This document shows, in pieces, positions 17,942 through 18,707 of a stretch of DNA of 64,000 nucleotides (position 1 is its first letter; every line of letters begins with the position of its first letter). Made by a program: the position numbers and the translations under genes. The DNA lies in the NCBI GenBank assembly GCA_045589295.1, contig JAZNOU010000001.1, positions 21,374 through 85,373 of the forward strand, given 5' to 3'. The notes beneath the pieces are model-generated. The model saw nothing but the letters and a program-made list of their open reading frames with translations, was not told where the DNA came from and did not search any database. Source of the DNA: Clostridia bacterium (lineage in GTDB: Bacteria; Bacillota; Clostridia; RGIG6154).

Positions 17942-17995
17942 TTACTTATATTCCCTGAATTGTACGGATACTCCATCGGGGTCATAAACATAAAA
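17942..17995 (-). pseudogene. 3' fragment of interrupted VOC/glyoxalase gene
   Basis: Encodes FYVYDPDGVSVQFREYK-stop, the typical VOC C-terminal F-x-DPDG motif. Confidence 0.8.
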
Positions 17996-18070
17996 ACTGC
18001 GAGGCATAAAGTTTAGATGCAAACCCTTTTTGATGGCTGCTCATGTCAAGCTATAACTAAAAACATATAA

Positions 18071-18381
18071 ATAAATTGGAATTTGTTTATTTCTTTTTTC
18101 GTATAGGTACAATTACCTTTAACAGCAGTATAATAACAGCTATCAGGAAAAGTTGTATAAGGATAGCATAAATTATAAGACCCCGCGATTCGTAATAACA
18201 CAACTCGTCCCACCAAACAACGACTTCAAAAATCGCAGTCAGTAAAATACTAAACCAAACATATCTACGATTGATAAAGAAAAATACAAAAGATAGGATA
18301 AATGTCGGTAAAACTTTTGGTAATAAAAGATATTGAATGATTATTGTTAGCATAATGACACCACCACAAATTCTTATTTAT
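18071..18381. repeat. Inverted ~16-bp sites bracketing the passenger ORF
   Basis: ATAAATTGGAATTTGT (18071-18086) and ACAAATTCTTATTTAT (18366-18381) are 14/16 complementary. Confidence 0.7.
18087..18353 (-). CDS. Small hydrophobic membrane protein (about 3 TM helices), cassette passenger
   Basis: 88 aa with three hydrophobic stretches, basic tail and RBS-like GGTGGTG. Confidence 0.7.
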   Translation of the reverse strand: MLTIIIQYLLLPKVLPTFILSFVFFFINRRYVWFSILLTAIFEVVVWWDELCYYESRGLIIYAILIQLFLIAVIILLLKVIVPIRKKK

Positions 18382-18401
18382 CTGTTTGACATTTTTACGA
18401 C

Positions 18402-18707
18402 ATACTTTGCGTCAGGCTCAGGATGACGAATATCAGACGGATTCATACCAAGCAAAACAGCCTTACTGTGCACCGTCTCAAGGTTATCTGTAGCAAAGCA
18501 TAAAAACATACCTTTGCCCTCAAACACTTGGCCTTCAGGCATAGCAATTAATTCTACTTCGGTATCGTTTTCAGAATCATAAAGATAAGCAACATTTCCA
18601 CCGCCTGCAGAAAATTGCTTACCAATCTTAAGTTGGACAAGTTCGGTATAAAAATTTAAAGAATTTTCAAAATTTTTTACTCTTAACGATATGTGATGAA
18701 ATTTAAT
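18402..18707 (-). pseudogene. 5' part of interrupted VOC/glyoxalase gene
   Basis: (I/M)KFHHISLRVKNFENSLNFYTELVQL...EVELI...FLCFATDNLE; begins with ATT after RBS-like GAAAGGG. Confidence 0.8.

Follow-up and report, generated by a model that had tools for sequence, protein, structure and literature searches.

The closest described systems to the locus reported here are integrons, the triplet serine integrases of streptococcal ICEs, CIMEs and the IntDOT recombinase of CTnDOT. The reports cited for them were drawn upon in part, and the statements below are limited to those parts. Integrons and CALINs (with IntI, attI and attC) resemble the locus in that small cassettes of one gene each, often of unknown function, form co-oriented arrays, and in using two site types, one of which is the acceptor (PMC9024848, in part). 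Another likeness is off-target insertion into genes (PMC10127599, in part). Integrons are, however, described as extremely rare in Firmicutes (PMC9024848, in part). The triplet serine integrases of streptococcal ICEs (mutT, traG and hsdM) disrupt genes, are associated with 2-8 bp repeats and use secondary sites (PMC4701971, in part). Here, the likeness lies in three tandem large serine recombinases and, for some elements, in additional CDSs between the triplet and the target (PMC4701971, in part). CIMEs are integrase-less units that keep their att sites and stack by insertion at a resident att site, which is called tandem accretion (PMC5704250, in part). Lastly, IntDOT recognizes a conserved dinucleotide left of the crossover with variable bases right of it (PMC2817482, in part).

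The locus is a glyoxalase (VOC) gene in the window, i.e., the whole stretch of 64,000 nucleotides that was analysed. The gene is interrupted by one single-gene cassette, consisting of a leader, an 88-aa ORF, a site A and a site B, that belongs to a widespread array system of Clostridia. In the open literature, to which the search was confined (subscription papers and supplements lay outside its scope), no description of this cassette system was found. The pair of filled and empty alleles, the crossover geometry and the enzyme candidate are new.

Filled and empty alleles of the glyoxalase gene

The VOC gene lies on the minus strand, with a 4-alpha-glucanotransferase gene on one side and a glycosyltransferase gene on the other, both on the same strand. 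Its 5′ part (18402..18707, 102 codons, starting with ATT in the window) matches PF00903 in a Pfam search (E 2.9e-9, profile positions 1-102 of 121), and its 3′ part (17942..17995) holds 17 codons and the stop. Both ORF pieces confirm the split that an initial annotation had read at these positions. The cassette between them, likewise on the minus strand, measures 406 bp (17996..18401, equivalently 17998-18403) and has a GC content of 31% versus 36% for the window. An uninterrupted allele, which the initial annotation had proposed to look for in relatives, was found in a metagenome contig (L202) with flank identities of 99.46% over 3306 nt and 99.79% over 481 nt. Its empty site reads ...GCAAAGTAT TTTTATG..., with an ATG start, and its product of 119 aa spans the full PF00903 profile (1-121). 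The complete protein of ~119 aa predicted from removal of the insert is therefore encoded by a natural allele.

Among eight runs compared, a joint omitting exactly 406 bases (17995 to 18402) is present in two, X5 and X11, the shorter side of the X11 joint being 21 letters only. The filled form is found as an entire stretch within one contig in X2. X1, X3 and X4 contain the filled left junction (one of these three may be the window's own source), X8 contains pieces of the insert including this junction, and X13 has the same cassette with a different left flank. The X2 contig and the left junctions in X1, X3 and X4 show that the junction is not an assembly chimera, which had been named as a risk. 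The insertion is real, precise and strain-level. It is also recent, as proposed earlier, since the flanks are 99.5% identical to the empty allele. ATG is kept in the filled X2 and in the empty L202 and X5, and is lost in the window, X1 and X3 lineages. As X2 is filled yet has ATG, and both empty alleles have it as well, the ATT start probably arose by decay after the insertion, in agreement with the initial annotation.

Precise removal of the cassette repairs the gene, and X2 combines ATG with an intact site B, as would be expected if the cassette were a regulated, skin-like excisable switch that restores the glyoxalase upon removal. Such a switch is nevertheless very improbable, as ATG has been lost in the window, X1 and X3 lineages, the window has lost two bases of B, and the interruption is strain-level. 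Moreover, empty and filled alleles occur together in none of the eight runs, with the limit that contigs drop rare variants. A circle joint was not found in the contigs of these runs either, although contigs cannot show its absence.

The left junction of the window reads AAGT-AT-GTCG and the right one TCGCA-GT-TTTT. On the left, the AT core (18402..18403, minus strand) is the target's own dinucleotide. The right core (17996..17997, minus strand) is GT in the window and AT in X1 and X2, which have A at 17997 on the minus strand and thus a 2-bp AT direct repeat around the cassette. It follows that the ancestral right junction was TCGCA-AT-TTTT, and the empty site has a single AT. The absence of a multi-base target duplication, claimed earlier, consequently holds for the window allele but not for X1 and X2. 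Since X2 keeps both ATG and the consensus base at 18010, the likely order of events is insertion, then the change of ATG to ATT together with a change in B, and then AT to GT, bearing in mind that contigs can mix strains. Compared to the other runs, window positions 17997, 18010 and 18100 appear derived, and two of these three lie inside the 26-nt invariant end. The changes at this end possibly reflect a locking-in of the cassette, although their number is small.

The junction letters can equally be read as an insertion between A and T or as TG...CA ends with one A repeated, but the population data favour the 2-bp AT reading. A shared 2-bp core with no other duplication, as looked for with a large serine recombinase, is what was found: AT at both junctions in X1 and X2, a single AT in the empty allele and a core bias across sites. 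Terminal inverted repeats and a multi-base target duplication, which would point to a DDE MITE or mobile insertion cassette, are both lacking. The earlier statement that there is no terminal inverted repeat is borne out, but an internal pair brackets the ORF of the insert.

Cassette anatomy, arrays and sites

From its left end, the cassette on the minus strand starts directly at the core with a leader in its short form (18385..18402) carrying two TGTCGAA-like repeats. Then follow the inner left inverted repeat (18366..18388), the cargo ORF (18087..18353) and the inner right inverted repeat (18064..18086); the two repeats flanking the cargo are 78% complementary. The cassette's own site A (18038..18063, score 25.1) is followed by GC instead of AT and lies 16 nt before site B (17998..18021), the near-invariant cassette end, which has one change from the consensus in the window allele (18010). 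The initial annotation had recognized the insert but overlooked its 88-aa ORF (18353-18087), as well as the membership of an array system, the likeness of the target to site A and the AT core. The cargo protein is hydrophobic and has no Pfam family. It has 27 homologues of 51-97% identity, was found in 0 of 17 other order-level genomes, and stayed below threshold in Atlas recognition, which assigned no family. The same shell with its inner repeat pair carries five cargos, i.e., the 88-aa orphan of the window and DUF1349, GrpB, EamA and AAA/shikimate-kinase-like genes at other loci (L013, L021, L024 and L062). This suggests a second, nested level of gene swapping.

Downstream of B comes AT, behind which there is often a leader made up of ~7 nt, a pair of TGTCGAA repeats and a ribosome-binding site. 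The short form, with which the insert starts, occurs at 11 of 246 B junctions. Several other readings of the cassette were discarded. Rfam gave chance snoRNA matches only, none of them meaningful, and a group II intron has no Rfam match and the ends are unsuited to it. An Xer/dif reading of the 28-mer does not fit, as the crossover lies at its end and not at its centre. A CRISPR-like repeat duplication was rejected because B is missing from the empty allele and came with the cassette; for the same reason, B travels with the cassette.

The consensus of site B is TGCATCTAAACCTTATG-nn-TCGCA, then AT. It was found in 38 of 301 class-level genomes of Clostridia (reversed-pattern control 0), and at the phylum level in one of 251 genomes, which is the window's own (0 of 250 others). 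Named sequences with B are uncultured gut Clostridia. A search for further copies of the insert ends, as had been advised, showed that B occurs a second time in the own genome. Plasmids and phages gave short weak matches only, and viral contigs one B match. The alignment columns of B are 92-100% conserved except for two variable columns, and AT directly follows B on its 3′ side in 235 of 249 sites. Arrays of B are co-oriented, with sites mostly 0.2-1.6 kb apart, and most units hold a single gene or a single REP-like palindrome; in 131 of 134 cases, B and the ORF upstream of it point the same way.

The cargo of the arrays comprises DUF559, Fic/Doc, methyltransferase, GrpB, EamA and reverse transcriptase genes and many orphans. 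A Pfam scan covered 98 site-adjacent proteins (97 of 112 listed and one more), some of which are chromosomal neighbours. A Pfam match was lacking for 48 of the 98, and a recombinase or transposase domain was found in none, which is in line with the earlier proposal of action in trans. Clustering of 791 proteins around B likewise revealed no common mobility gene, the top cluster being DUF559 with 12 members. The most frequent cassettes are DUF559 genes flanked by palindromes and several types of REP-like palindrome that carry no gene. Such cassettes often lie at contig ends (L074, L095, L108, L136, L143 and others). One array holds a gene for a 312-aa reverse transcriptase between its sites (L087:3756-4691).

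The second site, A, has the consensus TTTTTnnnCCTRACTTGACACGAACT. It precedes 32 of 34 leaders that have neither B nor its sister B′ in front of them. Furthermore, 128 of 245 B sites have an A at a distance of 14-18 nt in front of them, the VOC insert included (control 5/2000), and the spacing is 15-16 nt in 118 of these 128 intact sites. From B to the next B′ or B-like remnant, a class that includes a few REP leaders, the spacing is also 15-16 nt in 34 of 42 cases, as expected if a resident A-x-B′ site receives an insertion where its A ends. Where loci share a stretch, its boundary falls no more than 40 nt from A, B or B′ in both of them for 53 of 57 3′ ends and 37 of 43 5′ ends, where the single-locus chance is 5.6%; these pairs are not independent, as loci were found via B and several pairs share the DUF559 cassette. 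One and the same cassette sits after A in one locus and after B in another, in register. Cassettes are swapped at sites A and B, and insertion takes place at A|NN of resident sites. In two genomes (L314 and L321), an array with the same cassettes occupies the same chromosomal place, yet the A-to-B spacers differ. The own genome has a resident array (G000 C20:75175-76410) in which each of three B′ sites lies 16-17 nt past a site A followed by a non-AT dinucleotide.

In the VOC gene, a site A-like sequence (18404..18429, minus strand) in register with the AT core is the putative cryptic acceptor half-site. With a matrix built from 32 heads, the VOC site left out, the target AT ranks 181 of 283,972 genomic ATs over 26 nt and 121 of 283,972 over the proximal 15 nt. 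The other 13 registers tested at the target all score below -21 on the 26-nt matrix. As its score of 1.95 is far below the minimum of 13.8 for true heads and the B′ half is missing, the target reads as a weak secondary site. This weak match to A can also be taken, together with the rarer short leader and the failure to find a candidate enzyme in the own genome, as a sign of a one-off illegitimate or microhomology insertion of an array fragment, with no dedicated enzyme at the target. Such an event is improbable, as the right end is exactly TCGCA-AT, a complete cassette was inserted without loss of any target base, and the target is in the top 0.06% of AT positions and in the correct register.

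The core dinucleotide and the candidate recombinase

In 75 heads, the dinucleotide after A is AT in 36, TA in 17, AG in eight, TT in seven, AC in five, and TG and AA in one each, so that 39 of 75 are not AT. Most TA heads carry a B′-type leader, and among the 58 heads outside the TA class, 57 share at least one base with AT (36 being AT itself). The 127 intact A-x-B sites have TG in 56, TT in 17, TC in 14, GC in 13 and AT in two, and 91 of them share no base with AT. Used sites thus have one or both bases in common with the AT of the donor, and most unused ones have none. Where B is not followed by AT, it is mainly followed by TT, AC or AG, the same main types as after A, which is expected from a 2-nt staggered cut. 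Joins of the form A|AT|reversed B variant, head-to-head and with exact spacing, occur at L312:10370 and L337:2961, as a palindromic core would allow; the reversed ends of these two have identical upstream bases. A 2-nt staggered cut with a palindromic core is the geometry of serine recombinases, and the core pattern fits it. On inspection, an inverted TGTC(A/G)A is common to A and the leader but not to B and the 14-nt spacer. Canonical attP and attB have half-sites that are inverted repeats, a relation that the four half-sites here lack.

The same cassette system could instead be driven by a tyrosine recombinase of the IntDOT or Tn916 kind, with one or two matching bases at the first cut and a variable coupling sequence, here the 7 nt after AT. 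The 7-nt leader spacer is indeed variable between near-identical cassettes, differing in nine of 13 readable pairs, which a clean 2-bp exchange does not explain, and A|AT|leader forms a rough inverted repeat about a 6-bp centre. In IntDOT itself, a variable coupling sequence of 5 bp accompanies a conserved dinucleotide, and identity at a single base is tolerated (PMC2817482, in part). A leader-type spacer is, however, found in none of 39 right-hand B-to-B′ remnants, where resolution of a heteroduplex predicts some, and no coupling bases were added at the VOC insertion. Moreover, tyrosine recombinase loci examined from six genomes have no A, B or leader. The multi-copy family of ~280 aa (71 of 301 genomes) was rejected as the enzyme, as it is a promoter invertase with inverted repeats of its own; one member in the own genome (G000 C8:5386-6240, at L209), of 285 aa, is followed by a promoter segment bounded by inverted repeats. 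A tyrosine enzyme is considered unlikely, though it deserves some weight.

Slightly less probable is an RNA-guided IS110-type or HUH (Y1/Y2) transposase with a dinucleotide core, or a non-autonomous IS derivative (TG...CA, 1-bp A repeat) with its own ends as target. In favour of these, the cassette termini allow a TG...CA reading, B in the VOC copy can form a hairpin, the left boundary varies between long and short leaders, and the own genome has two IS110 transposases and IS200-type fragments. Yet a full hairpin is present in only 75 of 255 sites while the columns of B are highly conserved, with a mean folding z of about -0.8, and the cassette has neither terminal inverted repeats nor a multi-base duplication. 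IS110 was not found in two B-rich genomes (G005 and G279), and neither B nor the leader is present at the IS110 and Y1 loci examined, RAYT-like Y1 loci included. At nine IS110 loci, a search by B and leader sequence gave no resident donor junction matching the ends. The bases before the core vary, where a derivative of IS200/IS605 or IS91 would have an end hairpin and a fixed target of 4-5 nt. The HUH transposase suggested by the initial annotation is thus not supported, as B is conserved in sequence and not in fold and the examined Y1 loci have no sites.

When the recombinase, IS110 and Y1 loci of six genomes were screened for the sites, one strong match appeared, a site A behind a large serine recombinase, in addition to one B upstream of a broken serine recombinase (L279). 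In close relatives of this recombinase (at least 72%), a conserved arm and site A follow 213-222 nt after the stop codon in all six fully read loci (control 3/150), and the DNA behind A differs in each of them. The same arm and A are found with a seventh close recombinase, which a contig end reduces to a fragment. For distant recombinases (32-36%), A lies within 240 nt in three of five, and most other serine recombinases and viral-contig matches have no A. In the most complete locus (L334), the recombinase is the third of a triplet and lies behind DUF6870; all three members keep the Resolvase, Recombinase and Zn-ribbon domains and the Y-x-R-x-S motif. Public data hold ~40 clusters at 70% or more to the candidate.

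The arm is also present in 17 of 138 B loci, and most arms have no adjoining recombinase. Its two copies in the own genome (G000 C15:44459-44776 and C8:53698-53867) equally stand without recombinases, and the C15 copy ends with A, a degenerate leader and the genome's second B. Two features of the arm, an A-like core in reverse orientation and an extended -10-like sequence, point to a possible role as a cassette promoter. The triplet was not found in the own genome (97% complete), the best match being 28%. Close members occur in at least four of 38 B-positive genomes versus one of 262 B-negative ones; these are lower bounds, with four candidates scored per genome, and kin are not independent. 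Within three families, the counts for close members are 1/14, 0/12 and 2/67. A co-oriented B lies near the recombinase in one of the six close loci (G063), so that the enzyme is tied more to A than to B, and the link between recombinase and arm may reflect one element family and not independent evidence. Other recombinases were set aside. The serine recombinases near five arrays (L130, L145, L073, L106 and L279) show mostly 22-41% likeness in long alignments and do not group into a family, and a XerC-like gene near the L032 array and integrase remnants at L101 and L304 are single cases.

Proposed mechanism and comparison with known systems

The reading that is preferred, with somewhat better than even confidence, is that a non-autonomous single-gene cassette joined the VOC gene at an AT core beside a weak likeness of acceptor A, probably after excision as a circle and by integration in trans through a large serine recombinase, likely of the triplet type. 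The cassette would be excised as a circle with a B-AT-leader joint, and the reaction would be A|AT|x + B|AT|leader -> A|AT|leader + B|AT|x, with a triplet-type enzyme presumably encoded elsewhere. Because each cassette ends with A, 16 nt and B, arrays would grow by insertion into resident sites with a matching dinucleotide. After insertion, the split gene probably decayed (ATG to ATT) and site B would have gained its two changes. The model builds on parts that were observed, namely the cassette anatomy, both alleles, the AT repeat, the likeness of the target, the swapping at A and B, and A behind triplet recombinases.

In a broader and more tentative proposal, held with a little less than even confidence, gut Clostridia have an integron analogue of their own. 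A serine-integrase triplet with a downstream promoter-like arm and acceptor A would capture B-ended single-gene cassettes via a 2-bp core, the three enzymes possibly reading the arms A, B and leader. Arrays would persist and be reshuffled far from the enzyme, and the VOC locus would be an off-target insertion of which both alleles are available. Together, the two VOC alleles pin down the donor end, the core and the register of the acceptor, and the candidate recombinase turns a repeat of hitherto unknown role into a testable three-gene, two-site system. If the proposal is true, gene-cassette capture has a second evolutionary origin, based on serine integrases, triplet modules do more than integrate ICEs, and an integrase with short, relaxed targets becomes available. 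Single genes are shuffled in arrays of Clostridia even though integrons are reported to be extremely rare in Firmicutes (PMC9024848, in part).

Compared to integrons, the arrays are likewise co-oriented and built of swappable single-gene cassettes. The integron integrase profile TIGR02249 scored above its cut-off in none of five genomes, the own one included (best 69 bits versus a cut-off of 265), and GTTRRRY was found at the crossover in none of 45 junctions. For an attC-type hairpin, the mean z on 40 of the 45 junctions is -0.85 for the top and -0.73 for the bottom strand, with z < -2 in seven and three of 40, respectively. Site B differs from integron sites in being conserved in sequence and not as a hairpin, the core is AT, and the arrays lie at many chromosomal places. 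The cassette thus works like an integron cassette, yet lacks the IntI, hairpin and GTTRRRY signatures. The streptococcal triplets are the integration module of whole ICEs, and the part of that report used here describes neither single-gene cassettes with a near-invariant end nor distant arrays (PMC4701971); they are likened to the present triplet by description and not by integrase identity. IntDOT is a tyrosine enzyme of a large conjugative element that transfers coupling bases (PMC2817482, in part), whereas none of 39 right junctions shows such transfer here. CIMEs are decayed remnants of ICEs or IMEs that sit at the end of a single target gene (PMC5704250, in part), whereas the cassettes are mostly 0.2-1.6 kb and standardised, have been reshuffled between families and supply the next site themselves. 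By analogy, IntDOT is the nearest tyrosine alternative, and the accretion of CIMEs is the nearest concept for the stacking of these cassettes.
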